From: Chiloscyllium plagiosum
Lineage: Eukaryota
DNA: 41,938 bases
Direction of reading: 5' to 3'
NCBI RefSeq assembly: GCF_004010195.1
Contig: NC_057719.1
Location: 2,694,077-2,736,014 of the forward strand
Under the pieces are notes generated by a model that saw nothing but the letters and a program-made list of their open reading frames with translations, did no database searches and had not been told where the DNA came from. Positions 5,590 through 40,245 of this stretch are shown here, piece by piece. The number at the start of each line of letters is the position of its first letter. Position 1 is the stretch's first letter. The position numbers and the translations under genes are program-made.

Positions 5590-6525
5590 TTGTTCATCTA
5601 TTTCTACACCTTGCCCTGCTCTGGTAGCATTACGCAGGGAACATTCCTTCTGGGACATGTGGTCCACTCCCCCTCCGTTATCAACCATCCCCATATCATG
5701 TTCCCATCGAACTGCAGAAGGTATAACAGCTGGCTGCTTATCTCCTCCCTTGTCACTACCAAGGCCCCAAACAAACCTTCCAGTGAAGCAACAATTTTCC
5801 TGCACTTCAATCAATCCAGTTTAATCAATTTGCTGTTCACTGTGTGGTCTCCTCTACATTGGGGTAATACATTTGAATGACTGTTTTGCAGTACACTTAT
5901 AATCTGTCAGTATAAATGACCATGAGGTTCCAGCCACTTGCCATTTCAACACATGACCGTGTTCTCATGTCAACATTTCTGTCATAGGCCTCTGCAGTGC
6001 TGCAGTGAGCCTCAGTGCCAGCTCCAAGAACAACATTTTCGGCTTGGAGACCCTGCAGCCTCTTGGACTCAATACTGAGTTCAATAACTTTACCCACCCT
6101 CACACTTGGTCCTGACATAGCATGAATTGCTTTCAGCACAGCCAGCCCATTCCCACTCACTCTTAGTCCTATTATCACATGGTATGGATTGCTTTCAGCA
6201 CGGCCTATCCATTCTCTCCTATCTCAGCTCTCATTATCACTATTCAGCTTTTTTGTCCCGGCCTACAATCATCCCCACGACCCTTTCATATTTCTCTCTG
6301 CCTGGGTCCCATCTCCATCAATCTGCTCACATTTGCTCCCAGCCGCTCCTCAACTTCACCTTCAGTATACATGCAATTTTTCTTGCTGTTTTTAGTTCTG
6401 ATGAAGGATCATTGGACTCGAAATGTTAACTCTACTTTCTCCCCAGTTGCTGCCAGACCTGTTGAGTTGCACTAGCAATTTCAGTTTTTCATTCAGATAT
6501 CCAGCATTCACAGTTCTTTATTTTA
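5590..6525 (+). mobile_element. Old Neptune-type Penelope-like element, 3' part
   Basis: Decayed similarity to 31700-32190 (CGLLYIG); terminus with hammerhead CTGATGA..CGAAATGTT at 6395-6430. Confidence 0.7.
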
Positions 6526-6773
6526 TTTCAACATTTACCCAGTCCTTCACTATCAGAAATGTAATGCAGGATCTCTCTGCCCTGCAAGCTCAATAAATAA
6601 AACCAACCACGCAGCAAAATCATATGAAGACCATTGTTTACAAGTCACAAAGCCTTATTTTAGACATGTATCACTCTTCCTACTTAACCAATGGTTAAAT
6701 TACTGGAAACTACACAAACAGCATCAGTAAAAGGAATGTAGGCAAGATCTGCCACAACCTTTATGGACAAATT

Positions 6774-6850
6774 TCATTCCGTAAACTTGAATGAGTTGCT
6801 TGATAACATCAGGGTTGAACAGCCTCCAAAGAACAGATTTTTTTCTCTTC
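6774..6850 (-). other. Candidate last exon of unidentified gene
   Basis: Acceptor ctacaacag; two usable frames (GREKNLFFGG..KFTE* or KRKKSVLWRLFNPDVIKQLIQ..). Confidence 0.4.
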
Positions 6851-7629
6851 CTGTTGTAGCATGAGCAAAGGTGCGACAAGAAGAAGAATATGGCATGCAA
6901 AAAAAAAATCTGCTTCTCAATATCAAGAAGCATTTTCTGACTCTTTTTCTCAAGTTGTAAATGGCAAATATAGATTGTCACCCTTGAGTGGCAAACACCT
7001 TATTTCCAAACATTTGCAACACACTAAAACCCCAAATTGCCTCACTTGTATGCACTTCCAATTCTCTCCTCCAAGAAACCAGTTAGCAAAAATACCCAAT
7101 GTGTAAATAGATACCAAACAGCTGCAGCTTGCTAAATACTTATTCTAGCCATCATTCAACCATTTCTTTAAATTAACATTCCTGCATGCTCGATGGTCAC
7201 CACCATCTTCCTTAATCCCTCATCCACACAAGTCAACATCGACACACTACCAGTCTACCACATCACACCTGTTCACAGATCAACTCAAACACACTCCAAC
7301 ACTTTAATGTTCAAAGATACCTATAACTTGCATTCTTCCTCCTGTAAAATTGTGTAACATTCAGGGACCCATACTTCTCAAGCATCTTCACAGGATACAA
7401 TTCATGGTTCGATAATTGCTTTCTTGGCACCCATTTACTTTACAGCTTTCTTGGAGGCTGCTATCCCTCAGTTGTGTCACACTGCTTTCTTAGCACACAG
7501 GGCTTTATAGACTGTAGTTTGTATCATTTTTTAGTGCCGCAGGAGAGGCAGACAACTTGTAATGTTGGGGAAGACTGAACAGTGAATGTATGATCAAGGG
7601 GTAGACATGATGCTTTAAACCATTCCATT

Positions 7630-8170
7630 AGGGTGAATACACTTTTAGAATACTGCATATAATTCTGGTCTCCCTACTACAGTAAAGATGCTGTTAAACT
7701 TGAGAGGGTGCAAAAAAGATTTACATGTTAATGGACTACAGGAATTGTGCTGTACGGAATTGTACGGAAAGCCTGAACAGACTGGGGCTATTTTCCCTAT
7801 AGTGTTGGAGGCTGAGGGATGACCTTATAGAGGTTTATAAAATCATGAGGGGCATGGATAAGGTGAAAAGGCAAGGTCTCTTTTCTAGGCTAGGGAAGCC
7901 AAAACTAGAGAGCACAGCTTTAAGGTGAGAAGGGAAATATTTAAAAAGGACTTGAGGGCTACAGTTTTCATGCAGCTGTTGGTGTGTGTATGGAATGAGC
8001 TGCCAAAGGAAGTGGTACAGATGGGTACAAATACAATAGTAAAAGGCATCTGGACAAGTACATGAATAGGAAAGGTTAGAGGGATATGGGCTAAATGCTG
8101 GCAAGTGGGACCAGATCAGTTTACGATAAGTTGGACTGAACGTTCTGTTTCCATGCTATATAACTCCATG
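7630..8170 (+). mobile_element. CR1 LINE 3' fragment
   Basis: Decayed LERVQKRF / DLIEVYKIMRGMD coding and CR1 3' UTR. Confidence 0.85.
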
Positions 8171-8975: not shown

Positions 8976-9098
8976 CTTTCCTGTAGAGATTTCTTTCCTT
9001 TCCTGTGAGCCATGTCTTTGGTAATAATAGTTGAGCACCAGATTGTGAGGGCCAGCTGGGCTTTAAATATGGTGTCAGCAACTTGATCTTTGAGAGAT
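8976..9098 (-). other. Candidate exon (123 bp)
   Basis: gctgttag acceptor, AAG|GTGCCT donor (weak), two open frames. Confidence 0.45.
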
Positions 9099-9310
9099 CT
9101 AACAGCAACAACTTCTTTCGTCTCTCTGGCCCCACAATTTCATGAGGAAGATGCAGTTGCATAAGTAATTAGGTGAAGAGTGGAAGATTTTATGAGTGAA
9201 GTCATTCCACGACATCCAAACATTCTCGGTACTATGATTTTCAATGGACATAACGCTTTAATTGCAAATAGTAAAATTTTGTAGTACAGCTTTTATCCAA
9301 TCAATTAATT

Positions 9311-9644
9311 TAGTTAGAATCCCTGCAGTGTGGAAAGAGGCCCTTCTGTCCAACAAGTCCACACCAACACCCTAAAGAGTAACCCACCCAGATCCATTCC
9401 CTTATTTCTCTACATTTCCCCTGACTAATCCACCGAGCACTAAGGGCAATTTTTAGCATGGCCAATCCATCTAAACTGCACATCTTTGGATTGCGGAAGG
9501 AAACCGGAGCACCCGGAGGAAATCCACACAGACATGGGGAGAATGTGCAAGCTCCACACAGACAGTCACCCAAGGCTGGAATCAAACCCAGGTATCTGGT
9601 GCTGTGAGGCTGAAGTGTTAACCACTGAGCCACCATGCCGCCCC
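9311..9644 (-). mobile_element. tRNA-derived HE1-like SINE
   Basis: A box TGGCTCAGTGG, B box GGTTTGATTCC, CR1-like tail. Confidence 0.88.
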
Positions 9645-9877
9645 CTGAATTTTAACAGTAGTCATGTAAAAGGTTTGAGGGGAATGAGACAACTAATTCA
9701 AAGTAATAGCGATCAGGCAGTTCTGAAATCTTTCATATTTTATTTACAACACAATCAAAAAATTATGGAAATAACTCTGTAGTTAACTAGCTTAGCTAAA
9801 AGTCATTTGTGACAAATCAATAAGAATATTTCTTTCTCAAAGTGAGGAATTGTATGAAATCGTACTATTCAAAATAC

Positions 9878-9926
9878 CATAAGAGTTTTGAGGACATTGG
9901 GGAGAAAAGCTGTTTTTTCTCTCCCT
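9878..9926 (-). other. Candidate exon (49 bp)
   Basis: ttatttttccag acceptor, ATG|GTATTT donor. Confidence 0.45.
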
Positions 9927-11488: not shown

Positions 11489-12605
11489 CTGAAGAAATGT
11501 GTCAGGATTGTAAACCCTGGGATCAATCTGTATACCAAGTAAACATTTAGCTTGATGGTAGAGGTGTCAAAATGAGAAATAGACAGTGTATTGTCTCCGC
11601 CTGCTCCTGCCCCACCGAACTCATCTCCGCATACCTTGACACCTACATTCGGGACACCACCCATGCCCTCCACCTGCTCCATGATTTTTGCTTCCCCGGA
11701 CCCCAACGCCTTATTTTCACCATGGACATCCAGTCCCTGTACACCTCCATCCCCCATCACGAAGGACTCAAAGCCCTCCGCTTCTTCCTTTCCCGCCGTA
11801 CCGACCAGTACCCTTCCACTGACACCCTCCTTCGACTGACGGAACTGGTCCTCACCCTGAACAACTTCTCTTTCCAATCCTCCCACTTCCTCCAAACGAA
11901 AGGAGTAGCCATGGGCACCCGCATGGGGCCCAGCTATGCCTGCCTCTTCGTAGGATATGTGGAACAATCCATCTTCCGCAACTACACTGGCCCCAACCCC
12001 CACCTTTTCCTCCGCTACATCGATGACTGTATCGGCGCCGCCTCGTGCTCACACGAGGAGGTNNNNNNNNNNNNNNNNNNNNNNNNNNNNNNNNNNNNNN
12101 NNNNNNNNNNNNNNNNNNNNNNNNNNNNNNNNNNNNNNNNNNNNNNNNNNNNNNNNNNNNNNNNNNNNNNNNNNNNNNNNNNNNNNNNNNNNNNNNNNNN
12201 NNNNNNNNNNNNNNNNNNNNNNNNNNNNNNNNNNNNNNNNNNNNNNNNNNNNNNNNNNNNNNNNNNNNNNNNNNNNNNNNNNNNNNNNNNNNNNNNNNNN
12301 NNNNNNNNNNNNNNNNNNNNNNNNNNNNNNNNNNNNNNNNNNNNNNNNNNNNNNNNNNNNNNNNNNNNNNNNNNNNNNNNNNNNNNNNNNNNNNNNNNNN
12401 NNNNNNNNNNNNNNNNNNNNNNNNNNNNNNNNNNNNNNNNNNNNNNNNNNNNNNNNNNNNNNNNNNNNNNNNNNNNNNNNNNNNNNNNNNNNNNNNNNNN
12501 NNNNNNNNNNNNNNNNNNNNNNNNNNNNNNNNNNNNNNNNNNNNNNNNNNNAAATGTGTTGCTGGAAAAGCGCAGCAGGTCAGGCAGCATCCAGGGAACA
12601 GGAGA

Positions 12606-12640
12606 ATCGACGTTTCGGGCATAAGCCCTTCTTCAGGAAT
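12606..12640 (-). ncRNA. Minimal type I hammerhead ribozyme motif
   Basis: Minus strand reads CUGAAGA A GGGC UUAU GCCC GAAA CGUC. Confidence 0.75.
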
Positions 12641-13019
12641 GAGGAAGGTTTGTCCAGCAGGCTAAGATAAAAGGTAGGGAGGTGGGACTTGGGGGAGGGG
12701 CGTCGGAAATGTGATAGGTGGAAAGAGGTCAAGGTGAGGGTGATAGGTCAGACTGGGGTGGGGGCGGGGAGGTCGGGAAGAAGATTGCAGGTTAGGAAGG
12801 CGGTGCTGAATTTGATGGATTTGACTGAGACAGGCTGGGGGGAGGGGAAATGAGGAAACTGGTGAAATCTGAGTTCATCCCTTGTGGTTGGAGGGTTCCC
12901 ACCCCAGTCTGACCTATCACCCTCACCTTGACCTCTTTCCACCTATCACATTTCCAACGCCCCTCCCCCAAGTCCCTCCTCCCTACCTTTTATCTTAGCC
13001 TGCTGGACAAACTTTCCTC

Positions 13020-13055
13020 ATTCCTGAAGAAGGGCTTATGCCCGAAACGTCGATT
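13020..13055 (+). ncRNA. Minimal type I hammerhead ribozyme motif
   Basis: CUGAAGA at 13024-13030, stem II GGGC/GCCC, GAAA, palindromic ACGU, GUC ending 13051; stem I weak. Confidence 0.75.
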
Positions 13056-13224
13056 CTCCTGTTCCCTGGATGCTGCCTGATCTGCTGCACTTTTCCAGCA
13101 ACACATTTTCAGCACTGATCTCCAGCATCTGCAGACCTCACTTTCTCCTCAGTGTATTTGTAATGCCTACATGATGACATTCCCCCATATAGGCTGAGAT
13201 TATTCATTTTAGGGTTCAAGTCTG

Positions 13225-13720: not shown

Positions 13721-13816
13721 TCCACCAAGCCTGTGGCCATCACTTCAAGCCCAAGTCTGCAACCTGTCAGAAGATGGTTCCTACTTTCATGAAGTCTCAT
13801 TACTCCCTTTGATCTA

Positions 13817-14222
13817 TGATTCGGATTTATGTAAAACTCTGTTATCTCACTTTTTAGATTGGAATCAATCTAAACATCAGGTCATAGACAGAGAACACAG
13901 GGGGCTAACACCTTCAACATATTGTCTAGCTATCACCATTGTTAACAGCTAACCCGAGAATGCAACTTTAAAAAAAAGTTTTGTGATTTACACATGAAAG
14001 AAGTGAAACTACCACTGTATTCTAATAGATGAAAGGTTTAACAGACAATCAATTCTTCAATGTATAATTTCAGTTACATCACACTGCAAATTTTTGCTAT
14101 AAATTCTGTGTTACGATCGAGCCCTCCACAATCACCTGGTGAAGGAGCGTCTCTCTGAAAGCTAGTGTGCTTCCAATTAAACTGTTGGACTATAACCTGG
14201 TGTTGTGTGATTTTTAACTTTT
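13817..14222 (+). mobile_element. Non-coding Penelope-type terminal insertion (third family)
   Basis: TSD TCCCTTTGATCTA at 13804-13816 and 14223-14235; hammerhead-like cac CTGGTGA AGGAG..GAAAGCTA gtg at 14133-14167. Confidence 0.7.
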
Positions 14223-14889: not shown

Positions 14890-16932
14890 TTACATTATTA
14901 ATGACTTGGAAAATGGCACGGAAGGTGATATATCAAAATTTTCTAATAACACAAAGTTAGGTGGCATTATAGACAGTGTAGATGATAGCATAAAGTTATA
15001 AAAGGATATTGATAGACTAAGTGAATGGGCAAAACTGTGGCAGATGGAGTTCAATGTAAGTAAGTGTAATGTTATCCATCTTGGAGCAAAAAAAATGGAT
15101 CAAGGTATATTCTAGATGGTATGAAGTTAAACACAGTGTCCAAAGACACTTGGAGGTTCAGATGCATAGAGGTTTAAAATGTCTTGAACAGGTGTAGAAA
15201 GTTAATTGAAAGCTGACCTTTATATCAAAAGGACTGGAATACAAGAATGCAGAAGTTATGCTGCATAACTCAGGTTAGACTCCACTTGGAGTACTGAGAG
15301 CAGATCTAGGCAGCTTAAGAAGGATATATTGTTCTTGGAAAGAGGACAATGTACGTTTACAAGATTAATACCTTGACTTCAGGGGTTAGGAGAGATTATA
15401 CACACGAGGTCTGTTTTCTCCAGAATTTAGAAGATTAAGGAGTTATCGGATTGAATTCTTACTGAAAGAAAGGGTAGATAAACTTTTCCGATTGATTAAG
15501 GATTCTAGAACTAGGGGGCATAATCTGAAAATTAGAGTCAGACCATTCAGCATAAGTTAAGACATATTCGTGTGCGATTAGTAAGTTTGCAGATGACACT
15601 AAAATAGGCAGTATCGTGGACAGTGAGGAAGATTATCAGAAATTGTAGCAGGACCTTGATCAGCTGGGGAAGTGGGTCGAGAAATGACAAATGGAGTTTA
15701 ATATAGGTAAGTGTGAGGTCTTGCATTTTGTAAAGTCAAATCAAGGTAGGCGTTTCATGGTGAATGGTAGGATGTTAAGGAGTGTAGTGGAACAGAGGGA
15801 CCTTGGAGTTCAGGTTCACAGTTCTCTGAAAGTGAAGTCACCTGTAGACAGGGCAGAAAAGAAGGTTTTTAGCACACTGGTCTTTACCAGTAAGGGCATT
15901 GGGAATAGAGGTTGGGAAGTTATGTTACAGTTATACAGGACGTTGGTGAGGCCGCACTTGGAGTATTATATTCAGGTTTAGTCACCTTACTGAAGGAAGG
16001 ATATTATTAACCTGGGAAGAGTACAGAAGAAATTTACAAGGATGTTGCCAGGACTCAATGGTCTGAGTTATAGGGAGAATTGGACAAGCTAGATGTTTTT
16101 CATAAGACTATGGGAGACTGAAGAGGGACCTTATAAAAGTGTTAAAGATCATGAGAGGCATGGATAAGGTGAATGCACTTGGTCTTTTTCCCAGAGTTGG
16201 GGAATTGAGGACTAGAGCATCAGTTTAAGGTTAGAGAGGTAAAAATAAAAGGAACCTGAGGGGCAACTTTTATTACCCAGAGGGTGGGACACATTTGGAA
16301 TGAGCTGCCAGAGGAAATGGCTGAGGCAGATACATTAACAACATTTGATAGACATATGGACAAATATATGGATAGGGAAGGGTTAGAAGGATATATGGAG
16401 AAAGTGAGGACTGCAGATGCTGGAGATCAGAGCTGAAAATGTGTTGCTGGAAAAGTGGTGCAGGTCAGGCAGCATCCAAGGAGCAGAAGAATCGACGTTT
16501 CGGGCATAAGCCCTTCTTCATTCCTGAAGAAGGGCTTATGCCCGAAACGTTGATTCTCCTGCTCCTTGGATGCTGCCTGACCTGCTGCGCTTTTCCAGCA
16601 ACACATTTTCAGCTTAGAAGGATATGTGCCAAGTGCAGGAAATGGGTTAGCATGGATGGATATTTTGGTCAAATGGACCAGGGCTTGTCTCCATCCTGTA
16701 GGACACTATGTTTGGAAGCAATTCTATATACAGAGGGTGATAGATATTTAGAACTCATTTCCACAAATGGCAGTGGATGCTAAATGAGCTTTTAATTTTA
16801 AATCTCAGATCGATCAAGTTTTTTTAAGCAAAGGCATTAAGAAATTAATATAGGCTAAAGGCAGATAATCTCATTGAATGGTGAAACAGGCTTGAGGGCT
16901 GATTGGTCTACTCCTGTTACTATGTTCCTATG
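14890..16932 (+). mobile_element. Nested CR1 fragments (older copy split by a younger copy at about 15565-16710)
   Basis: SKFADDTK and MEFN..KC.V.H motifs occur twice; two 3' UTRs. Confidence 0.85.
16398..16613. mobile_element. Fold-back pLTR-only Penelope insertion
   Basis: Inverted arms meeting at about 16520; TSD TTAGAAGGATAT(A/G)TG at 16383-16397 and 16614-16628. Confidence 0.9.
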
Positions 16933-19297: not shown

Positions 19298-20959
19298 CCT
19301 CGGGGAATCTCCCATCCACTGCCTCCAACCTCATAGTCCCACAACCCCGCACCTCCCGCTTCTACCTCTTGCCCAAAATCCACAAACCTGACTGCCCCGG
19401 CCGACCCATTGTCTCCGCCTGCTCCTGCCCCACCGAACTCATCTCCGCATACCTTGACACCGTCCTGTCCCCCTTAGTCCAAGAACTCCCCACCTACGTT
19501 CGGGACACCACCCATGCCCTCCACCTGATCCATGATTTTCGCTTCCCCAGTCCCCAACGCCTTATCTTCACCATGGACATCCAGTCCCTGTACACCTCCA
19601 TCACCCATCACGAAGGACTCAAAGCCCTCCGCTTCTTCCTTTCCCGCCGTACCGACCAGTACCCTTCCACAGACACCCTCCTTCGACTGACTGAACTGGT
19701 CCTCACCCTGAACAACTTCTCCTTCCAATCCTCCCACTTCCTCCAAACGAAAGGAATAGCCATGGGCACCCGCATGGGCCCCAGCTATGACTGCCTCTTC
19801 GTAGGATATGTGGAACAATCCATCTTCCACAACTACACTGGCCCCACCCCCCACCTTTTCCTCCGCTACATCGATGACTGTATCGGCGCCGCCTCGTGCT
19901 CCCACGAGAGGTGGAACAGTTCATCCACTTCACCAACACCTTCCACCCCGACCTCAAATTCACCTGGACAGTCTCAGATTCCTCCCTCCCCTTCCTCGAC
20001 CTATCTATTTCTACCTCAGGCGACCGAATCAACACGGACATCTACTACAAACCGACCGACTCCCACAGCTAACTGGACTACACCTCCTCCCATCCTGCCC
20101 CATGTAAAAACGCCATCCCATTCTCCCAATTCCTTCGACCCCGCCGCATCTGCTCCCAGGAGGACCAGTACCAAAAACGNNNNNNNNNNNNNNNNNNNNN
20201 NNNNNNNNNNNNNNNNNNNNNNNNNNNNNNNNNNNNNNNNNNNNNNNNNNNNNNNNNNNNNNNNNNNNNNNNNNNNNNNNNNNNNNNNNNNNNNNNNNNN
20301 NNNNNNNNNNNNNNNNNNNNNNNNNNNNNNNNNNNNNNNNNNNNNNNNNNNNNNNNNNNNNNNNNNNNNNNNNNNNNNNNNNNNNNNNNNNNNNNNNNNN
20401 NNNNNNNNNNNNNNNNNNNNNNNNNNNNNNNNNNNNNNNNNNNNNNNNNNNNNNNNNNNNNNNNNNNNNNNNNNNNNNNNNNNNNNNNNNNNNNNNNNNN
20501 NNNNNNNNNNNNNNNNNNNNNNNNNNNNNNNNNNNNNNNNNNNNNNNNNNNNNNNNNNNNNNNNNNNNNNNNNNNNNNNNNNNNNNNNNNNNNNNNNNNN
20601 NNNNNNNNNNNNNNNNNNNNNNNNNNNNNNNNNNNNNNNNNNNNNNNNNNNNNNNNNNNNNNNNNNNNNNNNNNNNNNNNNNNNNNNNNTTCCCGACCTC
20701 TCCGCCCCCACCTCAGTCTGACCTATCACCCTCACCTTGACCTCTTTCCACCTATCACATTTCCAACGCCCTTCCCCCAAGTCCCTCCTCCCTACCTTTT
20801 ATCTTAGCCTGCTGGACAAACTTTCCTCATTCCTGAAGAAGGGCTTATGCCCGAAACGTCGATTCTCCTGTTCCCTGGATGCTGCCTGACCTGCTGCGCT
20901 TTTCCAGCAACACATTTCCAGCTCTGATCTCCAGCATCTGCAGACCTCACTTTCTCCTC
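19298..20959 (+). mobile_element. Young Neptune-type Penelope-like element, 5'-truncated, with gap
   Basis: FYLLPKIHKPDCPGRPIVS, RYIDD; pLTR with hammerhead at 20833-20860; possible ACA TSD. Confidence 0.9.
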
Positions 20960-20960
20960 A

Positions 20961-21276
20961 CAGGTACACAATCCTTTATCTGAAACACTCGGCATCAGCT
21001 GGTTTTTGGAATTTTTCGGATTTCAGAATAAGTGACAGTTTAATGGTGAAATTTTAAAAAATCTTACTGAACAGCAGATGCACCTATGAGTACTACGAAC
21101 CCTGAGACAGAATTGGTGCCCACCAGTGCTGGGCCATGCCCCCATGTCACATCTGAGTGACGTGGGTCGAGTGGGTGTGGAGTTGAGTTAACTGTTTGCA
21201 CGCCAAACAACCTTGTTATGGAGAAAAAAATTTCATGAAAAAATCTTTGGATTTTGGATAAAGGATTGTGTACCTG
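20961..21276. mobile_element. MITE, Tc1/mariner (Tigger/pogo)-like
   Basis: Perfect 20-bp TIR CAGGTACACAATCCTTTATC; non-coding interior; left TA recovered at 19294-19295. Confidence 0.8.
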
Positions 21277-21429
21277 TCTTTTAACTGTGCTGCAAATACA
21301 AAAGTATTTTACTAAAACCTTTGACCAACTGAATCACATCTGGAACACATGACTTTAAATCTGATAGAAGTGAGGTCTAGGCTATCTCTTTGATATATTT
21401 TGAGACTGTCTGGTCTGGCCCATAACAGT

Positions 21430-21740
21430 GATATGAGATTCTTAGGCATTGTTGGAGTAGTACTCATCCAAACAAGTGGAATGTATTCTTTCAGACGCTT
21501 GCAGCTGGCAGACAGTCCTTGGCAAGTCAGGAAGTGCATTACCCACTGTAGGATTCCTAGCTTCCAACCTGTTCTTATAGTAAGTATGTGGCTAGTTCAG
21601 ATCAATTGCTGATGAAGAGCTTATGCTTGAAACGTCAATTCTTCTGCTCATTGATTGCTGCCTGACCGGCTGTGCTTATCCAGCACCGCACACTTGACTC
21701 AGTTCAGCTACAGGTCAATGTAAACATCAGGATGTTGATA
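21430..21740 (-). mobile_element. Decayed CR1-group LINE fragment
   Basis: Reverse complement resembles about 26620-26840. Confidence 0.55.
21601..21700 (+). mobile_element. 100-bp pLTR insertion with hammerhead motif
   Basis: CTGATGA AGAGC TTAT GCTT GAAACGTC at 21609-21636; TSD AGTTCAG at 21594-21600 and 21701-21707. Confidence 0.75.
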
Positions 21741-25659: not shown

Positions 25660-27480
25660 AGAATTGCTGCTTTGATGAAAGATTGGATAACTGGTATTGC
25701 TAGAAGAGATGAGACTGAGGAATGATTTGTTTGAGGTGAACTGGATAATGAGAAGCTTAGATAGTGTACGAGACAGACCTGTTCCTCTACCAGAAAAGAT
25801 ACATATCAGGTTTAAGGTGCTTGTAGAAGGATTAGAGTATCACAAAGAAAACTTTTCACTTTCCGACAATGTGAAAATTGCCCAGGTATGTCCTGTACAC
25901 ACAAAAAAAGGTCTAACTCAACCTGGCCAATTACTGCCCAATCTACTCTCCATCATCAGTAAAGTGATGAACGGTGTCATCAACAATGCTATCAAGCAGC
26001 ATCTGCTCAGCAACAACATACTCAATGACACCCAACTTTGGTTTCGCCGGGGTCATTCAGCTCCTGATCTCATTATAGCCTTGGTTCAAACAAAAGAGCT
26101 GAATTCCAGAGGTGAGGTGAGGATGACAGCCCATGACATCAAGACCGCATTTGACCAAGTATGGCAATCAAGGAGCCCTGGCAAAACTGGAATCAATGGA
26201 TATTAGGGGGCAAACACTCTGCTGGTTAAAGTCATACCCGGCACATAGGAAGATGGTTGTGGTTGTGGAGGGTCAGTCACCTCAGCTTTAGTCATCCCTG
26301 CAGGAGTTCCTCAGGGTAGTGTCTTAGGCCCAACAATCTTCCATTGCTTCGTCAATGACCTTCTCTCCGTCATAAGGTCAGTATTGGGATGTTCACTGAT
26401 GATTGCATAGTGTTCAGCACCATTCGCGACTCCTCAGATACTGAAGCAGTCCGTGCTCAAGTGCGACAAGATCTGGAAAATATCGAGGCTTGGGTCGACT
26501 AGTGGCAAGTAACATTCGCACCACACAAATGCCAGACAATGACCTCACCAATAAGAAACACTCTAACCACCAGCCCTAAACATTCAACAGTATTACCATC
26601 ACTGCATTCCCCCACTGTCAACATCCTTGGGGTTACCAGTGACCAGAAACTCAACTGGACATACCACATAAAACACAGTGGCTACAACAGCAGGTCAGAG
26701 ACTGCAGATATTACAGCGAGTAACTCACCTCTTGACACCCTAAATTCTATCCACCACCTGCAAAGCACAAGTCAGGAGTGTGATGGAATAATCTTCACTT
26801 ACCTGGATGGGTGCCACTCCAAAAACACTCAAGAAGCGTGATGCCATTCAGGTAGCTTGGTAGGCACCATATCTCCAAACATTCAATCCCTCCACCACCG
26901 ACACTGAGTAGCAGCAGTGTGTACTATCTACAAGAGGCACTGCAGAAATTCACCAGAGATCCTTAGACAGCACCTTCCAAACCCATGACCACTTCAATCT
27001 AGAAGGACAACAGGTACATCTGAAAATTACCCTCCAAGCGACTCCCCATCCTGACTTGAAATATATCGCCATTCCTTCAGTCGTTGGGTCAACGTCCTGG
27101 AATACCCTCCCTACGAGCATTGTGGGTCAACACACAGCAAGTGGATTGCAGTGATTCACAAAGGCAGTTCATCACCACCTTCTCAAGGATAAATAGGGAT
27201 GGGCTATCAATGCTGGCCAGCCGGCAATACCCAAGATCTAAAAATGAGTAAACAAAACTCGGAGCGTAGTGAGTGTCTGGCAGTGACTGCCTAATTTAAT
27301 GGCAGAGGCAAATAACTTCAACTAACGAAAGAGGAAACTGGTCCTGTACCTGAAGCGATCCAAGGTGCAAGGCTATGGGCCAGGTCCTGGAAATAACAAA
27401 TAGGATTAAAATGCATGGCTATTTTCGTCAGCTGGTGTAAACATGATGGGCTGAATGGTTTCTTTATATGTTTTAACTTT
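25660..27480 (+). mobile_element. Old CR1 3' fragment containing a CR1-group LINE (about 25860-27255)
   Basis: [29 protein letters not shown]; outer copy resumes at about 27258. Confidence 0.8.
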
Positions 27481-29279: not shown

Positions 29280-32200
29280 GATTTTCAAATCCAAATTGAC
29301 AGAAATCACCTTCAACAACGATTCTCTTTCTGGATCCTCCGCTCCACGCTATCAGCCATGCGCTGCCATCGACTCTACCTGCAGTCAGTCCTGCCCCAGG
29401 TTAGAGCCTCACTTTCCTCGACCTGCAGCGGACCTCTGCATTTCTACATCCTCAGAAGGATACATGCGCTCAACAAATGGTATTTCCCTACTGCATCGGA
29501 CATAAAAGAATGTAAGTTAAACAAACTTTCATGTACTTCCCTCCATAAACGGGTTTGCTTGAACCTTCCAAAACCTTCCCCCGGCCTCTGGAACCACCCA
29601 GACGTCATTAGCCATGCGGCCGCTCCTGCCACAAACACTAGGGTGATCGATGATGTCACCTCCATCCCCAACGCTGCCACACAGCCCACAGCCACTGTTG
29701 ACCACACTACCTCTGAGATCGCCATCCACCCAACCACCTCAGCGACTGCCGAGAAGACTACTGGCGCAGGATCCTCTGGCGCCGCGAGATTCACCAGCAC
29801 AGACGCAATACCTACCCCTGCAGTTGCTGCCAAGGCAGCCACTTCCACCCCGCTGGAAGGTTCTATCGTCGACGTCACTTCCGCCACCAGTGATATCTGC
29901 AGCCGAGTACCCAACAATAACGTTAACCTCGCCACCCATGGCGCCACATTCACCCCCGTTAACACAGCCATAAGCACTACTTCCACCCTCTTTGTGAGCG
30001 TACTTCCTTTGGTGACATTGCTACTGACCCTATAACCATGCCACTCAAGCAACTGTCTCCACCCCCACCTCAAGCACCAGCCCCACTCCAGGTCCTAGCT
30101 CCCAACCCTGCCGTGTCTTCATCATTTACCCAGACCTCCCCGTCTGTGAGGATGAACGTTTAGTCCTCAGTAAAGGCCTCACCTTTACTCCTCTATGGTC
30201 CCAGATTAATGAGTTCGACACATGCTGCAACCTTGAACATTTCTTCCACTGCCTCTGCCTCCGTGCCTACTTTTTCAACCAAGACACCCACCCACCAAGG
30301 ACCCCTTCTCCCACCTCCAACACACCCCATCCAACATAACACTTCATGCCAGCCTCAACTTGTCCAACCGCCTCATCCACTCAAACCTCTCGCCCTCACA
30401 GTGCGCAGCCTTTCACTCCCTCCGCTGCAACCCCAACCTCACCATCAAACCTGCAGACAAGGGGAAGCAGTAGTAGTGTGGCGCACTGACCTCTATACCA
30501 CTGAAGCCTGGCGCCAACTCGCAGACACCTCCTCCTACTGCCCCCCTTGATCACAACCTCACCTCCCACCAGCAAACCATCATCTTCCAGGCCATGCACA
30601 ACCTCATCACTTCTGGGGATCTCCCATCCATAGCCTCCAATCTCATTGTCCGTGAACCCTGCACTGCCCTATTCTACCTCCTTCCTAAGATGTGCAAACC
30701 TGACTGTCCCAGTCGACCAATTGTCTCAGCCTGCGCCTATCCCACTGAACTCTTCTCTACCTACCTCGAAACTGTTCTATCCCCCTTAGTCCAAGAATGC
30801 CCCACCTTCATTCGTGACACCACCCATCTCCTCCACCTTCTCCAAGATTTTTTTTTTCGCTGGCCCCCCAACACCTCATCTTCACCATGGACATCCAGTC
30901 CCTGTACACTTCGATCAGCCACGACAAAGGTCTTCCTCTCACGCTGTCCCAACCTTCCACCCTTCCACCGACACCCTCATCCGCCTGGCTTAACTGATCC
31001 TCACCCTCAACAACGTCTCCTTCCAATACTCCCACTTCTTTCAAACTATGGGCACCCGCATGGGACCCAGCTATGCCTGCCTGTTTTTCGGGTATGTGGC
31101 ACAGTCCATCTTCCGCAGTTACAGTGGCAGCACCCCCCACCTATTCCTCTGCTACATCGATGAATGTATCGGTTCTGCCTCATGCTCCCACAAGGAGGTT
31201 GAACAGTTCATCAACTTTACAACATCTTCCACCCTGACCTCAAATTCACCTGGACCATCTCGGACACCTCCCTCCCCTTCCTGGAACTCTCAATCACCGT
31301 CTCTGGCAACCAACTAACCACAGATATATACTATAAGCCCACCAACTACCACAGCTACCTCGACTACACCTCCCACCCTACCTCCTGTAAAAGCTCTTAT
31401 TCCCAATTCCTCTGCCTCCACCACATGTTCCCAGGATGATCATTCCGTCTTAAAAAATCCCAGATGTCCTCCTTCTTTCCCACGATCACAGCTTCCCTTC
31501 CCATGTGGTTCCCTGCGCATTTCCTCCACTTCATCACCACCGCTCTTGAACCTCACCCCTTCCAAAGCAACAAGGACAGAACCCCCTCCCGGTCCTCACA
31601 TTCCACTCCACCAACCTCCGCATCCATCGCATCATCCTCTGTCACTTCCGCCACCTCCAAACAGACCCGACAACCAGATATATTTCGCTCCCCACCCCTA
31701 TCAGCGTTCTGAAAAGACCATTCCCTCCGCGACTCCCTTGTCCGGTCCACACCCCCCGCGAGCCCACACCCCACTCCTGGCACCTTTCCCTGCCACTGCA
31801 GGAAGTGCAAAACCTGCACACACACCACTCTCCTCACCTCCATGCAAAGGCCTAAGGGATCCTTCCACATCCGTCAGAAATTCACCTGTACCTCTACCAA
31901 TGTCATATATTGCATCCATTGGTGCGGTCTCCTCTACACTGGGGAGACAGGATGCCTTCTTGCGGATCGTTTCAGAGAACATTTCTGGGACACCCGCACC
32001 CACCAAGCCCACCTCCCCATGGCTGAACACTTCAACTCCTCCTCCCACCCCACTGAGGACATGGGTGCTCGGCATCTTCAATTGCCAAATCATTACCACC
32101 TGATGCCTGGAGGAAGAACGCCTCATATTCCGCCTTGGGACCCTGCAACCACACAGGATAAATGTAGATTTCAACAGCTTCCTCATTCCCACCCTTCCCC

Positions 32201-33712
32201 CACTCCCCCGCCCCCCCTACCGCAAACATTATTCCAGTCCCAAGCCTCCAACTTGGCACTGCCCTCCGGAGGAGAAAGTGAGGTCTGCAGATGCTGGAGA
32301 AAGGATATGTGGAACAGTCCATCTTCTGCAACTACACTGGCCCCACCCACCACCTTTTCCTCCGCTACATCAATGACTGTATCGGCACCGCCTCGTGCTC
32401 CCACGAGGAGGTTGAACAGTTCATCCACTTCACCAACACCTTCCACCCCGACCTCAAATTCACCTGGACAGTCTCAGATTCCTCCCTCCCCTTCCTCGAC
32501 CTTTCTATTTCTATCTCAGGCGACCGAATCAACACGGACATCTACTACAAACCAACCGACTCCCACAGCTACCTGGACTACACCACCTCCCATCCTGCCC
32601 CCTGTAAAAACACCATCCCATTCTCCCAATTCCTTCGACTCCGCCACATCTGCTCCCAGGAGGACCAGTTCAAAATACGCACAACACAGACGGCCTCCTT
32701 CTTCAAGGACCGCAATTTCCCCCCCAACGTGGTCGACGATGCCCTCCACCGCATCTCTCCCACTTCCCGNNNNNNNNNNNNNNNNNNNNNNNNNNNNNNN
32801 NNNNNNNNNNNNNNNNNNNNNNNNNNNNNNNNNNNNNNNNNNNNNNNNNNNNNNNNNNNNNNNNNNNNNNNNNNNNNNNNNNNNNNNNNNNNNNNNNNNN
32901 NNNNNNNNNNNNNNNNNNNNNNNNNNNNNNNNNNNNNNNNNNNNNNNNNNNNNNNNNNNNNNNNNNNNNNNNNNNNNNNNNNNNNNNNNNNNNNNNNNNN
33001 NNNNNNNNNNNNNNNNNNNNNNNNNNNNNNNNNNNNNNNNNNNNNNNNNNNNNNNNNNNNNNNNNNNNNNNNNNNNNNNNNNNNNNNNNNNNNNNNNNNN
33101 NNNNNNNNNNNNNNNNNNNNNNNNNNNNNNNNNNNNNNNNNNNNNNNNNNNNNNNNNNNNNNNNNNNNNNNNNNNNNNNNNNNNNNNNNNNNNNNNNNNN
33201 NNNNNNNNNNNNNNNNNNNNNNNNNNNNNNNNNNNNNNNNNNNNNNNNNNNNNNNNNNNNNNNNNNNNNNNNNNNNNNNNNNNNNNNNNNNNNNNNNNNN
33301 NNNNNNNNNNNNNNNNNNNNNNNNNNNNNNNNNNNNNNNNNNNNNNNNNNNNNNNNNNNNNNNNNNNNNNNNNNNNNNNNNNNNNNNNNNNNNNNNNNNN
33401 NNNNTGAAGAAGTGCTTATGCCCGAAACGTCGATTCTCCTGTTCCCTGGATGCTGCCTGACCTGCTGCGCTTTTCCAGCAACACATTTACAGCACTGCCC
33501 TCCGGACCAGTCCATCACTCCCCCTCTGACCTATCACCTTCGTGCACCTATCGCTTTCCCAGCTACCTTCCCCCCAACCCTGCCCCCCTTTCCAGTTATT
33601 TCTCAGCCTCAACCCACAAGCCTCATTCAAGTTTATGCCCGAGACGTCAATTCTCCTACTCCGCGGATGCTGCCTGACCTGCTGTGTTTTTCCAGCACTA
33701 CATTCTCGATTC
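29280..33712 (+). mobile_element. Nearly full-length decayed Neptune-type Penelope-like element
   Basis: VLSKGLTF, KPADK, RT motifs, Cys linker FPCHCRKCKTC, FTCTSTNVIYCI..CGLLYTGET..RFREH; pLTR remnant to about 33712. Confidence 0.88.
32271..33491 (+). mobile_element. Younger Penelope-like copy nested in the older one
   Basis: TSD GCACTGCCCTCCGGA at 32256-32270 and 33492-33506; RT C-terminal half; gap. Confidence 0.85.
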
Positions 33713-34080
33713 TGACAGAAATCAAAGACCAGGTTTCTATACTTAACAAGAATTACAATTAAATTCAGACACTAACTACAAGTAAACAATTCTAAATCAA
33801 TGGCATATAACATTTTACATTAAAACTTGAATCTCCTTATAAACTTCCCCTTATGTGCAGACAACAGAAATGAAAATTAACTTACGGTCAAAGGAAAACT
33901 GGAAGGCAGTTCAGTGGTTGCTATTCATGAGTTGCTGACATTATCCTTCTGAATCATACGGATTCCCTACAGAGTGGAAGCACGCCATTCAGCCTTTCGA
34001 GTCTACACTGATCCTCCAAAGAGCATCCAACCCATCAATTAGACTCAGATAGCAACAGAGCTATGTGGGAACACCGTTGA

Positions 34081-34410
34081 GCGGGAAGGTGGCTTAGTGT
34101 TTAACATTGTTGCCTCACAGCCAGGAATCCGGATTTGATTCCAGCCTCAAGTGGAGTTTGCACTTTCTTCCTGTATCTGTGTGGGTTTCCTCTGGGTGCT
34201 CTGGTTTCCTCACACAGTACAGAGATGTGCAGGTTGGGTGGACTGGCCATGCTAAATTTCCCACAGTGTCTAGTGATATTGCAACATTGGTGGATTAACC
34301 ATGGGAAATGATGGGTTCCTAGGATAGGGTAGCGTGTGGGATGCTCTTCAAAGGGTTGGTGCGGATTTGATGGGTGGAATGGCCTGCTTACACACTGTTA
34401 GGATTCTATG
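34081..34410 (+). mobile_element. HE1-like SINE (a minus-strand SINE tail also lies at about 33950-34035)
   Basis: TGGCTTAGTG A box, GATTTGATTCC B box, body like 9311-9644. Confidence 0.8.
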
Positions 34411-34812: not shown

Positions 34813-35147
34813 TCATAGAATTCCTACAATGTGGAAGCAGACCATTTGGCCCATTGAGTCCACACCAACCCACCAAAGGGCATCCCAACCAGATCCACTG
34901 CCCTATCCCGTCCTTGTAACCCTGCATTTCCATCTAACCCACCTAGCCTGCACATGCTTGGACACTATGCGCAACTTAGCATGGCCAATGTATCCAACCT
35001 GCACAGTTTTGTATTGTGGGATGAAACCAGACCATCCATAGGAAACTCATGCAGACACAGGGAGGATGTGCAAACTTCGCACAGACAGTTGCCCGAGGAT
35101 GGAATCCCTGGCGCTGTAAGGCAGCAGTGCTAACCACTGTGCCACCA
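34813..35147 (-). mobile_element. HE1-like SINE
   Basis: TGGCACAGTGG A box and conserved body. Confidence 0.82.
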
Positions 35148-36470
35148 CTAAATGATAATTCGTGCACAAAGTGTTTCCAGCTTCAGAAACCTGAGCTGCA
35201 AGTTTCAGGGTGCTCAACATTCCAGGGTAGCGAAGTCTCAGCCACAATAGGTGGTGGGGGTTTGAGGGCATGTGACAGGGGCTCTAAGAGGTGGGGAATT
35301 GCTTTAATGATAAGGAAATCATAACTGCAGTCATGCAGGAAGATGTCTTGTAAGGCTCTTCTAATGAGGCCATCTGGGTAGAGCTTAGAAATAAAAATGT
35401 CAATTATTTTGCTGAGATTCTATGACATGCCTCCCAACAGTCAGAGGGAGATAGATGAGCAGATGTGAGGAAAACAAGGTTATACTTATAAGAGATTTTA
35501 ACTTTGGTAACATTAACTGAGATTGCCTTAGTGTGAAAAGATTAGACTTTGGATGGAATTTTTAAGTTGTAGCCAGGAGCTTTTGTGCCAGTATGTAGAA
35601 AGTCCTTCTAGAGATGGAGCAGTGTTAAATTTATTCCTAGGGAATGAAGCTGGTTGGAGTTTCAGTGGGTAAGAGTTTTGGGGATAGTGATCATAATTCT
35701 GTACACTTCAAAGTAATTCTGAAGAGGGATAAGGATAGTGCAGAAGTGTCTAAATTGGGGGAAGGCAATTTCAACAACATTAAATAAGACCTGGTAAACA
35801 TATACTGGGAGCAGCTACTTGTAGACAGATTTAGATTTGCAAGTGGGAATCTTTTAAAGGTAATATTGTAAGAATTAGGGTCAGTGTGTTCTTCCAAGAA
35901 TGGCAAGGTCAGCAAGTTCGGGGAAACCTAGATGTCAAGGAATATTGAGAGCTTGATAAAGAAAAAGGACGCATATGGCAGGTATAGTGCATTAAAAACA
36001 GAGGAGTTCTTTCAAAGTACAGACTGTAAGGGGTTACTCAAAAAAGAAATTGGGAGACCATAGAGGGGTCACAAAATATCAATGGCAGATAGGTTCGAGA
36101 AAAACCTCAAGGCTTTTTATAAGTATATTAAGAGTAAGAAGATTACCAGGGAAAGAATGGGACCTATTAGAGTGACAACTTGTACATGGAACCAGAGGAT
36201 GTGGGTGAGGTCTTAAATGAATACTTCTCATTATGCATTCACAGAGAAGAAAGACATTGTAACAGGCGATTTCAGTTGAGATGGCTAGTACATGTTAAGA
36301 TGAATAAAGGGGAGATATTAAGTGTTTTAGCAGGCCGAAACGTGCATATATCCCCATGGTCTGATGAGATGTATCGCAGGGTGCTATGGGAGGCAAAGAC
36401 GGAGACTACTGGGGCTCTGGCAGTGATATTTAATATTTCACTGACCACAGGTGAAGTGCCAGAAGGCTGA

Positions 36471-36572
36471 AATTGAGAGTGTGGTGCTGGAAAAGCACAG
36501 CAGGTCAGGCAGCATCTGAGGAGCAGGAGAATCGACGTTTCTGGCATAAGCCCTTTATCAGGAATGAATCAA
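36471..36572 (-). mobile_element. pLTR-only insertion with mutated hammerhead
   Basis: Minus strand CUGAUAA..GAAACGUC; imperfect TSD CAGAAGGCTGA / CAGATGACTGA. Confidence 0.75.
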
Positions 36573-36646
36573 CAGATGACTGAAGGAAAGCTAAGGTGGT
36601 TCCTTTGTTTAAGAAGAGCAGTAGGATAGTCAAGTTAGTCTGACGT

Positions 36647-37264
36647 ACAACGATGCTGCTCCTTTAACAAGGATAGGTTGTCCTTGTTTTTTTTTCAGAG
36701 GGGTTGCAAATGGATATATTTTAAAATGTCCGGGTTTGTCTACTTGAAGAAACTTTTAAGTTTATAAACAAACAGACGTATAATGAAAGGGGAGTGGCCA
36801 GTTCTTCCAGCTCAGCATCCTGGATTGGTTTGGTTTTTAGCAATCGAACTATTCAGGGCTGGTCAGTTGTGAGCTAGGAATCCAAAAGAAACAGCTACAT
36901 GGAAGAAGGTGCTCTATGCTGAATCTCTCTGCCATCTCTCTCTCCTGTAAGACCCTGCGTTTGATTTTACCTTTTATGCCAAGGGAGTTTGGGGACTGTT
37001 GCAGGAATTTGGAACAACATGATTAAGTTTGCAAAGTCTGTTGGGTTTTCGGATTGGTTAAGTTATTTTGTATTCTATTCTGTATTGTTTGTGTTTCATT
37101 CAGAACTCTGTAATTAAGTTCTGTTTTGTTTAAAACCGGGGGGTTTTCACCAGCTACATCACTCCTGGAATATCCATTATATACTTGCTCAAAACAACTT
37201 GTAAAGTTAAGAGTCTGGGCAATCTTCTTGAAATGTTTGGAGAGGTCTGGCCTGGTCCATAACA
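36647..37264 (+). repeat. 5' LTR of Gypsy element
   Basis: Ends CATAACA, followed by a PBS-like remnant and gag; left end approximate. Confidence 0.65.
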
Positions 37265-38944
37265 AATTGATGGCTCTGTTGGATTTGTTCTATAATTCCG
37301 ATTTGGGATAAGAGTTGTTGAACTCGAAGGCAGTGAATGGGTAGGTGCTTAGTGTCTTTTGTTCTGGGTATCAATTTTGGTTGGTTTAGACAGTGCTCGG
37401 GATAGCAATTGCTCTTTCAGTCACTAAGAGTTTTCTGGGGGTGGAAGAAGCAACTTTGGGGGTTTTACAAAAGGTGATTAAGGCCAAACTGCTGGAATCA
37501 GGAGACAATCTGGAATTGAAACTGCCTCCTTACATGAGGAAAAAAGAGATAATTACAGCAATAGCTCAGCATTTAAATTTGCTGGAAATACTATCGGAAT
37601 CTTTAGAGATGGCTAAAATTCGCTTTAAAATGAAATAGCTTCAGTTCCCGGCAATAAAAAGGGCAAAAGAAATGAAACTCTTTGAATTACGATGAAAAGC
37701 AAAGGTATGAGAAATAGAACAAAGCAGTTCAGAACAAAAAGAAAAACAAAGAGGAAAGGAATAGAGAGAGTTTGAACTTTAGAAATTGGCACTTGGACAG
37801 GAAAGTCAGCTTAAAAGGATGGAGGTGAAGGCTGAAGGTAAGCTCAATGAGGAAGAGCAGGGAGTTAAAATGACAGTATTAAGAGCTGAAATGGCTGATG
37901 ATTATGAGTTGGTCCATAAATCAAAGTTTGGCTTCAAAAAACAATTTCAATTCATGAGTGATTGAAATTGAGGAAAAGAAAAATCCTCACATGGTAAGGG
38001 AAAGGTAGATCTTGGTGAAGATCATAAGGATATCTTACCAGGAAACCCTTGAAGGAGAAAGAGAAGTTAAAAAAAAACTCCGGTGTTTTCACTGCAATAA
38101 AGTAGGCTACATGAAATCACAGAATTTTGATGGAGTGGTAATGGAAAGCACAGTGGAGGTTAGAAAGCCACAGCAGAATGTACAACCTGGTCTGAAGTTG
38201 TTTAAGGAGGAAGTTTCAGATCTTCTTCAACTATGGAATTGTGAACCTAAAGTTTACTCGCGTAAGCCAGGAGCAGCAGGTGAAAAGTTTACAATATTAA
38301 GAGATACAGGATCTTCTCAATCTTTGATATTGAAAAATGAGGAGGTAATGTACCTCCGATGGACTATTGCCAGAAAAGATGCTCGTAACGGGAATTCAAC
38401 GTGAAAAAAGAGCTCAAAAGAAAAGGGTGAGGTTAGTGTCCAGTGAAGAGTGGAGAAGTTGTGGTAGGAGATCTTGACAAACCTTCAGTTCCAGGAATAT
38501 AATTTGTCCTTATTAATAATATAACTGGTTCACAGGTAGGAGTGCTAACTACCGTGGTTGAAAAGCCAACGGAAACTCAGCAACTGAACTATTAAAGATG
38601 CATTTCCTGGAATTTCCCCTAACTATGTGGTAACGAGGTCACAAAATCACCAACTGAAACAAGGGAAATCAAACAGTACAGATAAGAAAGATGAGGTGGG
38701 ATAAGCAGAGACCCTGTTTGATCAAATAGCTGACACAAAACAGGAGCAAATAGATGACAAAGCAGACATGTTCAGTTCAGAGAAATTAACTGAGTTACAG
38801 CAGAAAGATGAGAAACTAAAGCAATTGTATCAAAAAACAAACATGGAACAAGAATCTAGACGTATTCTTGAATGCTGCTATCTTAAGAATGATGTTTTAA
38901 TGAGGAAATGGAGACCATCATATCTTCAGGCAGATGAGAAATTG

Positions 38945-39425
38945 ATTAGTTTCCATACAGTGTGGAAATAGGCCATTTGGCCCAACAAGTCCACACCGAT
39001 CCTCTGAGGAGAAAGTGAGGTCTGCAGATGCTGGAGATCAGAGCTGAAAATGTGTTGCTGGAAAAGCGCAGCAGGTCAGGCAGCATCCAGGGAACAGGAG
39101 AATCGACATTTCCTGTTCCCTGGATGCTGCCTGACCTGCTGCGCTTTTCCAGCAACACATTTCCACACCGATCCTCTGAAGAGTAACCCATCCACACCTA
39201 TTTCCCTCTGACTAATGCACCTAACACAATGGGCAATTTAGCATGGCCAATTCACCTGACTTGCACATCTTTGGATTGTGGGAGGAAATTGAAGTACCCA
39301 GAGGAAACCCACACAGACACATGGAGAATGCGCAAATTCCACAGATATTCACCCAAGGTGGGAATCAAACCCAGGTCCCTGGCACTGTGAGACAACAGTG
39401 CTAACCATAGAGCCACCGTGCTGTC
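38945..39425 (-). mobile_element. HE1-like SINE in Gypsy pol, split by a pLTR hairpin
   Basis: A box remnant, B box GGTTTGATTCC, body like 9311-9644. Confidence 0.85.
39008..39161. mobile_element. Fold-back pLTR-only insertion
   Basis: 18-bp TSD TCCACACCGATCCTCTGA at 38990-39007 and 39162-39179. Confidence 0.9.
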
Positions 39426-40080
39426 CTCTGTTGCCAGTGGGCCACAGAAAGGAGGTGCTGTGGGTAGCACATGAACTACCAGCAGGGGTTCATTTAGGGG
39501 TAAGAAAAACCCAAGTTAAAATACAAAAACATTTTTACTGGCCCGATTGCACAAGGATGTAGTTGAATTTTGCCAGATATGTCATTATGTCAGGTAATTG
39601 GAAAACCACAGGAGTTAATAAAACCCACACCTTTAATATCTATTCCTGCATTTGAGGAACCTTTTACAAGAGTCTTAAATGATTGTTTGGAACCTCTACC
39701 TAAAACAAAAAATGGGAATCAGTATTTGTTAACAATAATGGATGTGTTCACTAGGTTTCCAGAAGCCATTCCATTATGAAATATCACAGCTAAAAGGATT
39801 GTAGAGGAGTTATTCAAGGAAGTGATGCACAACTTGAGAATAAAATAATTCAAATCTACTGTAGCATCCAGAATTGCAGAGAGCACTAGAAAGGTGGCAT
39901 CAGACATTAATGACCATGTTGAGGGCTAATAGTCAGGGCTATCCAGATGATAGGGAATTCATTTGTACTTTTTGCGATCAGAGATGCACAAAATGAATTG
40001 ACCAGATTCAGTCCATTTGAATTCGTTTTTGGGCATGAAGTGAGCGAACTGCTAAAATTGATTGAGAAGAAATTGGTGAG

Positions 40081-40245
40081 CTGGAAAAGCGCAGCAGGTT
40101 AGGCAGCATCAAAGGAGCAGGAGAATCGACGTTTTGGGCATAAGCCCTTCTTCAGGAATTCCTGATGCTGCCTGATCTGTTGCGCTTTTCCAGCAACACA
40201 TTTTTCAGCTCTGATCTCCAGCATCTGCAGTCCTCACTTTCTCCT
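40081..40245. mobile_element. Fold-back pLTR-only insertion in integrase
   Basis: 14-bp TSD AAGAAATTGGTGAG at 40067-40080 and 40246-40259. Confidence 0.9.

Follow-up and report, generated by a model that had tools for sequence, protein, structure and literature searches.

A 41,938-nucleotide (nt) stretch of the Chiloscyllium plagiosum genome (the window; contig NC_057719.1, positions 2,694,077 to 2,736,014) carries about a dozen short ribozyme motifs, which very probably are the minimal type I hammerheads of the pseudo-long terminal repeats (pLTRs) of endonuclease-positive Penelope-like elements of Neptune and Poseidon type in a cartilaginous fish. The first-pass annotation had placed hammerheads at 11 positions within the span 6395-40156 and a decayed one outside it at about 4090 on the minus strand. 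All 12 positions hold the arrangement CUGANGA, stem II, GAAA, two nucleotides and UH or a mutated copy of it, and the motifs are confirmed there as minimal type I hammerheads. For three of them the true C3 residue differs slightly from the position given and is 40155(-), 4092(-) and 33404. Such an arrangement is already described for the Penelope class, so that cartilaginous-fish families are added here to a known association and no new biology is needed.

Motif cores, stems and sequence groups

The core (C3-U4-G5-A6-N7-G8-A9, G12-A13-A14-A15.1, U16.1-H17) is intact in seven of the 11 motifs in the span, namely those starting at 6398, 12636(-), 13024, 16524, 20833, 21609 and 23745. Three others are mutated (A6G in 14136, G8A and C11.1A in 36561(-), and G12A in 40155(-)), and the C3 of motif 33404 lies inside an assembly gap, of which position 33404 is the last N. 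The decayed copy outside the span is present as claimed, with the changes U4G, G12A and G16.2A. The claim that the core and a mostly palindromic stem III persist while stem II varies also held: stem III is palindromic in 10 of the 11 motifs, reading ACGU in nine and AGCU in one (14136), and is replaced by AUGU in motif 6398.

Four sequence groups are distinguished, in agreement with the earlier count of at least three Penelope families, one of them (C) being tied to Penelope by anatomy alone. Group A, young and older Neptune-type, contributes eight of the 11 motifs in the span; group B, Poseidon-type, consists of 23745 and 4092(-), group C, with no open reading frame (ORF) in the window, of 14136, and group D, older Neptune-type, of 6398. 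A single unpaired base separates A9 from stem II in all 12 motifs, an A in groups A, C and D and a U in group B. The closing pair G10.1-C11.1 is kept in the intact copies except 21609, in which it is G-U; it is also G-U in 14136 and is lost in 36561.

A strict descriptor allowing the one unpaired base matched seven motifs in the window, compared with 0.053 on average and at most one in 300 dinucleotide shuffles. The seven are non-independent copies, yet three lineages are represented. Because a MAFFT alignment put group B in the wrong place, pairs were counted on rows anchored at the motif. The first three positions of stem I are C-G/U-A/U-U in group A, A-U/C-G/U-A in group B, C-G/A-U/C-G in group C and U-A/U-A/G-C in group D, and the 15.2-16.2 pair is C-G in groups A and B and G-C in group C, showing two-sided compensation between groups in both stem I and stem III. 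The stem I runs of 2, 5, 3 and 4 pairs (A, B, C and D) have a joint chance of ~1e-6 if independent, which A and D are not.

Metagenome relatives were analysed as the best 80 of 496, of which 79 (L001-L079) have an endonuclease alignment and 67 have at least 300 nt downstream. In 19 of these 67 Neptune-type loci a minimal motif lies 94-150 nt downstream of the endonuclease match, compared with none of 67 in antisense and none of 1340 shuffles. The stem I of these 19 (U-A/C-G/G-C) differs on both sides from the window groups. The motif is very uniform across the related loci, with 10 distinct versions among the 19 matches, and stem II starts with GGGC as in shark group A, despite a protein identity of ~45%. 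Pattern scans of the metagenome contigs and of viral contigs found no motif, a Poseidon protein search of the viral contigs found no relative, and a PDB sequence search returned nothing below E 0.2.

It is extremely improbable that the motifs arose as chance matches or represent a single repeat counted over and over. Eight of the 11 do come from a single lineage, as such an explanation would have it. However, three lineages pass the strict test where 0.053 matches are expected, the stems compensate between groups, the majority letters of group C (below) restore its core, and distant relatives carry the motif at the corresponding position.

The motifs resemble the minimal hammerheads described in the accessible text of PMC4209133 (Cervera and De la Pena 2014) in their type I core, the unpaired base between 9 and 10.1, the G10.1-C11.1 pair, the loopless palindromic 15.2-16.2, the short stem I and the presence of several families per genome. 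Shared too are the predominance of solo copies, opposite-strand pairs 100-700 bp apart and the association with Poseidon and Neptune elements, there in fish. The cartilaginous-fish host is a difference, and a search of that paper's supplement by cartilaginous-fish names gave no shark or chimaera entry. Group A has a stem II of 4 bp and a stem I of 2+1 bp, compared with 7-8 and 4-5 bp in the Schistosoma motifs reported there.

The Penelope link of the motifs is supported by tblastn, in that groups A, B and D follow reverse transcriptase (RT) or GIY-YIG endonuclease remnants. Group A terminates Neptune-type RT copies (protein P0003, E 2e-145). Its intact copies are 12609-12636(-), in a minus arm; 13024-13051 and 20833-20860, with predicted cuts after 13051 and 20860, the latter in an insertion of its own without an inverted arm; 16524-16551, with C17U, which would lie inside a hairpin if transcribed through; and the older 21609-21636, in a stub at ~21601-21700, which has lost the first stem I pair and has two G-U pairs in stem II. 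The other group A motifs are 33405-33431, with one stem II mismatch, the older 36534-36561(-), in a single-armed stub at ~36468-36570, and 40128-40155(-). Beyond the positions listed earlier, the descriptor scan and the sequence revealed a remnant without C3 (16494-16520(-)), the hammerhead remnant of an old element with its 5′ core deleted (33621-33648) and a hairpin insertion lacking both cores (39008-39162). A CX2-5CxxC linker between RT and endonuclease, a feature of Neptune and Nematis according to PMC8557442 as accessible, is present in the old copy at 31713-32069 together with GIY-YIG motifs. The linker portion of the young group A copies falls in gaps, and these copies are tied to the old one by 76.6% identity.

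Group B terminates a Poseidon-type RT/GIY-YIG remnant (proteins P0001/P0002, E 2e-129), and a Stegostoma protein continues in frame across the motif region with matching residues. The endonuclease region (23162-23758) and P0001/P0002 have GIY-YIG without the CX2-5CxxC linker. The hammerhead at 23745-23778 has an intact core, a stem I of 5 bp and a stem II of six positions, one of them mismatched. Its cut is predicted after 23778, and this position, like 13051 and 20860, had been named correctly as a cut position. The decayed motif at 4059-4092(-) ends a Poseidon 3′ fragment (~4023-4530) that shares 75% identity with the 22.5-23.9 kb copy across 487 nt. The group D hammerhead (6398-6427; intact core, GUU triplet, stem I of 4 bp, stem II of 5 bp with one mismatch, and AUGU where a Watson-Crick palindrome would stand) is located ~300 nt downstream of a decayed Neptune-type endonuclease (E 1e-11), the C-terminal part of an old ORF at 5621-6091 (P0083, E 1e-11; P0103, E 6e-12). 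Its tail has a weak likeness to the old group A tail (74% over 50 nt). The nearest named protein relatives of the Penelope pieces are from Chiloscyllium punctatum (88%) and Stegostoma tigrinum, pointing to a carpet shark as the most probable host.

The group C hammerhead (14136-14164; AGCU, CUA triplet, stem I of 3 bp) was compared with copies elsewhere by contig depth, among the contig differences from the window that were listed (40, with 173 more). Position 14139 is A in 99% (run X1), 96% (X9) and 68% (X17, another organism and perhaps an RNA run), 14152 is G in 85%, 81% and 94%, and 14156 is C in 74%, 67% and 81%, respectively. These majority letters restore A6 and two stem II pairs to give a 5-bp stem II. 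Copies elsewhere thus mostly have an intact core, and the family to which the decayed window copy belongs has the motif intact. From its 13-nt target-site duplication, two 3′ ends, shared tail and motif, we infer a Penelope origin of group C. A higher X17 depth downstream of the cut was not used, being confounded by divergence. One raw RNA run yielded 0 reads, an outcome that carries no weight for or against expression.

Several observations weigh against the assignment. No hammerhead family is among the eight Rfam matches up to E=1 in the window, so that of the two kinds of search proposed earlier the descriptor gave its seven matches and the covariance models gave none; the missing stem III loop is presumably the reason. 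The microRNA and psbA matches of Rfam fall below the gathering score and reflect insertion hairpins. The strict motif was not found in 48 of the 67 related loci. Group A stem I amounts to only 2 bp and 1 bp separated by a U-U mismatch, and within families two-sided compensation was not seen among either the window copies or the 19 related motifs, which have one-sided changes only. Partly constrained dimer folds, with stem I left out, reach −18.9 kcal/mol in group A and −10.1 kcal/mol in group B, compared with −21.9 and −20.6 kcal/mol for the best alternative homodimers. Group C has no tblastn match among 122 proteins and no blastn match to groups A, B or D. The clade names are putative, following the linker motif and protein matches rather than a tree, and by Pfam alone neither of the two endonuclease pieces in the window was assigned to a family. 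Self-cleavage by the window motifs is likewise a prediction from sequence.

Anatomy of the insertions

Eight insertions lie between target-site duplications of 9-17 nt; in a chance control, a 9-nt duplication was reached in four of 3000 random junction pairs. The flank matches of three single-armed copies (19.3, 21.6 and 36.5 kb) are only 5-7 nt. Relative to the cut, the 3′ ends fall near +48 to +63 or +97 to +99 in group A and at +40 or +79 in group B. A tail is present on exactly one arm in all five two-armed insertions of which the two ends can be seen (16397-16613, 22491-23857, 32271-33491, 39008-39162 and 40081-40245); the insertion at 11593-13149 was not counted, since one of its junctions is hidden in a gap.

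Three group A insertions are head-to-head pairs of arms. The insertion at 16397-16613 (12-nt duplication at 16383 and 16614) and that at 39008-39162 (17-nt duplication at 38991 and 39163) have the tail on the left arm only, and the insertion at 40081-40245 (14-nt duplication at 40067 and 40246) has it on the right arm only. The Poseidon-type element at 22491-23857 (+; 10-nt duplication at 22481 and 23858) is 5′-truncated and starts with an inverted 33-nt pLTR piece (22491-22523), with the tail on the direct copy only. The young Neptune-type element at 19299-20959 (+) is also 5′-truncated, consists of RT, gap and pLTR with tail, and has a flank match of 6 nt only. An old long Neptune-type element at 29309-33712 (+; RT, CX2-5CxxC-type linker and GIY-YIG; 12-nt duplication at 29297 and 33713) is interrupted by a young group A insertion at 32271-33491 (+; 15-nt duplication at 32256 and 33492), in which a lone inverted tail (to 32300), an RT fragment, a gap and a pLTR without tail follow one another. 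The group C insertion at 13817-14222 (+; 13-nt duplication at 13804 and 14223) lacks an ORF and ends at the short 3′ end of its family.

The group A insertion at 11593-13149 is complex. It consists of an RT fragment (+), an N gap, a minus arm (12552-12897) and a plus arm (12898-13149) with tail. The gap of 489 N (12063-12551) is smaller than the ~1.05 kb required to complete the RT copy, indicating either a complex insertion or an assembly fault. A single 9-nt duplication, at 11584 and 13150, brackets all segments (11584-13158).

The layout closely resembles that of Penelope-like elements (PMC3846280 and PMC8557442, as accessible) in its head-to-head arms, short target-site duplications and insertion into older copies. 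The one-arm tail of 33-39 nt compares with a tail of 30-40 bp at one end, alongside an inverted 5′-truncated pLTR, in the endonuclease-positive elements described there. Unlike in that layout, several insertions in the window are reduced to their two arms, 155-217 nt in all, and the arm starts are concentrated a short way upstream of the hammerhead. Most window copies are cut-down or decaying leftovers.

The head-to-head arrangement means that RNA read through both arms is predicted to form long hairpins (energies of −77 to −476 kcal/mol) in which the cores are buried. Each of the three hairpins has an apex of its own. An origin of the hairpins by simple fold-back alone was considered and rejected: at 16.4 kb the apex-loop strand begins at the short end and the opposite arm is 35 nt longer. 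These arm lengths require a second priming, whereas for the other two hairpins a later deletion of the apex is possible. In other genomic copies, tail-to-tail joints link 13109 to 13149, a short end to an inverted tail end (16 contigs in X1 and eight in X9), and among the contig joints groups A and C show 36-nt go-backs at their tails.

In the accessible text of PMC11167929 (Frangieh et al. 2024), the RT-endonuclease cleaves both target strands and extends them, and the tail is explained by two RT start sites about one tail length apart downstream of the hammerhead. The Anolis Poseidon element PAc studied there resembles the window copies in having the hammerhead upstream of two tail-separated RT start sites. 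Its biochemistry covers Poseidon only, with Neptune unnamed in that text, and the shark families are known here from sequence alone. Given the literature, reverse transcription would begin 40-100 nt downstream of the hammerhead. Each insertion would then copy the hammerhead end first and usually stop soon after, and such early stops would scatter solo and head-to-head motifs.

Arm starts and possible hammerhead cleavage

Stem III has no loop, and folding of the motif therefore needs two copies that pair through ACGU or AGCU. That Penelope pLTR hammerheads are proposed to cleave as dimers agrees with the accessible text of PMC4209133, but the window copies lack the layout needed for cleavage as cis dimers: no element contains two motifs of a single family in tandem on the same strand. 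Direct repeats of the motif family are separated by 217 nt (the nested insertion) up to 11.8 kb, and the DNA between them is unrelated. An intact source element could allow such pairing within its pLTR-ORF-pLTR transcript, probably at a slow rate and with protein assistance. Any real cleavage would then take place in transcripts of intact tandem source elements elsewhere, the scattered window copies being decaying passengers. The weaker dimer folds given above fit the weak or protein-dependent cleavage in the literature, which as far as accessible includes weak cleavage of Schistosoma dimers (PMC4209133) and cleavage of the Anolis motif with protein (PMC11167929). Dimer cleavage is also the subject of Lunse et al. 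2017, as cited in PMC6765202.

The starts of the arms bear on whether the copied RNA had been cut. Among 15 group A arms, four start at −35 to −31 from the cut, an interval picked after inspection and with small numbers, one starts at −26 and none at +1. The ends of the 11 arms outside this interval range from +68 to points over 1 kb upstream. At −31 stands the A of TCATTC, 4 nt before C3; this A also occupies the final one of the four stem I positions in groups A and D. TCATTC fits the initiator consensus YYANWYY, as do 1.1% of window positions. At one contig joint an arm starting exactly at 13020 is linked to an inverted tail (four contigs, X9). A TCA/TGA mini-palindrome near −31 may favour joining there instead. 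Joints from 13053-13055 back to 13020/13021 were set aside, since ATTC at both ends permits slippage or mis-laying, and an intron ending at −33 was rejected, there being no AG at that position. In Drosophila virilis the start site is further upstream, across an intron.

Arms that start 31-35 nt before the cut, with none at the cut, suggest that the copied RNA was uncut. It is possible, although only tentatively proposed, that the arm starts represent an RNA 5′ end at the A of TCATTC, on a two-pLTR transcript that remains uncut and is primed twice by a dimeric RT-endonuclease, and that the hammerhead removes a 31-nt capped leader. Priming at the 5′ pLTR would run off after ~90-130 nt to give a short arm, and priming at the 3′ pLTR would give a long arm. 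Removal of the leader might then switch the RNA between template and message or mark it for decay, rather than release the template.

The same bunching at or next to the initiator-like TCATTC would also be expected if the short copies were a separate non-autonomous family, similar to short interspersed nuclear elements (SINEs) or retrozymes, made from a short RNA of their own that starts just before the hammerhead. A 2026 preprint (bioRxiv 10.64898/2026.07.22.740005), in its accessible part, derives animal retrozymes from Penelope pLTRs and finds them in its one chondrichthyan. Non-LTR retrozymes (PMC7229834 and the same preprint, as accessible) indeed share with the window copies type I hammerheads related to Penelope pLTRs. 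Unlike these copies, however, they form head-to-tail tandem units, and the window contains no tandem array of motif units, which is the defining retrozyme trait. Furthermore, the same pLTR sequence ends RT-bearing copies (97.5% identity between the 13.0- and 20.8-kb copies), the other 11 arms end anywhere, and no two of the three hairpins share an apex. A separate family is thus unlikely, and the short copies are better taken as truncated products of the Penelope-like elements themselves.

A further explanation is that the motif is kept as a folded protein-binding element, or as a promoter or translation element of the pLTR, that does not cleave in vivo. The absence of group A arms starting at the cut is consistent with this, and so are several reports in the accessible texts: core mutants of Anolis Poseidon leave insertion unchanged and uncut RNA is the main template, Anolis RNA-seq has no read ends at the cut (PMC11167929), and entire Penelope clades are without the motif (PMC8557442). 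However, the catalytic bases themselves are common to groups whose stems differ. In addition, the Anolis motif cleaves with protein and C3G/G8C gives a partial rescue (PMC11167929, as accessible), and Schistosoma dimers have the weak cleavage mentioned above. A non-cleaving role is therefore doubtful, and the motifs are still read as hammerheads that may cleave in intact elements.

The genome offers a record that bears on the in vivo role of Penelope hammerheads. A 1.4-kb stretch, which also holds a piece of a long interspersed nuclear element (LINE), is covered by 123,670 (X1) and 174,480 (X9) contigs, and many young copies in the genome amount to a large natural record of insertion ends. If the arm starts do mark an uncut RNA 5′ end, the usual view of the ribozyme as the agent of template release would have to be revised. 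A literature search found nothing on shark Penelope hammerheads or on clustering of 5′ ends, but it was weak, most subscription papers lying outside its coverage.

The ATG in the stem II loop of the group A motif at 13024 opens a frame of ~26 codons (13037-13117) that ends near the tail start and may be an upstream ORF or chance. The ORF of Anolis Poseidon starts at stem II in the accessible text of PMC11167929.

Surrounding sequence

The window is repeat-rich and has three N gaps. A broken endogenous-retrovirus-like remnant occupies 549-4872, with RNase H-like, rve and TLV_coat Pfam matches in separate short frames, and the group B fragment (4023-4530) lies inside its env region. LINE-type RT remnants are found at 25691-27250 (RVT_1 match at 25691-26203) and in several stretches of 7.5-18 kb, together with dispersed 3′ ends, and several Penelope stubs are inserted within LINE-type copies. 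Directly after the 19.3-kb Penelope copy, an element with terminal inverted repeats of ~30 nt at 20960-21277 resembles what we take to be a Tc1/mariner-type miniature element. A decayed LTR-retroelement-like region at 36780-40800, recognized by eye (no Pfam match, two frames), hosts two of the hairpin insertions. A dispersed family of ~300 nt, presumably a SINE, is present at 9315-9650, 34080-34400(-), 34816-35150 and 38947-39425, the last of these copies being split by a Penelope hairpin.

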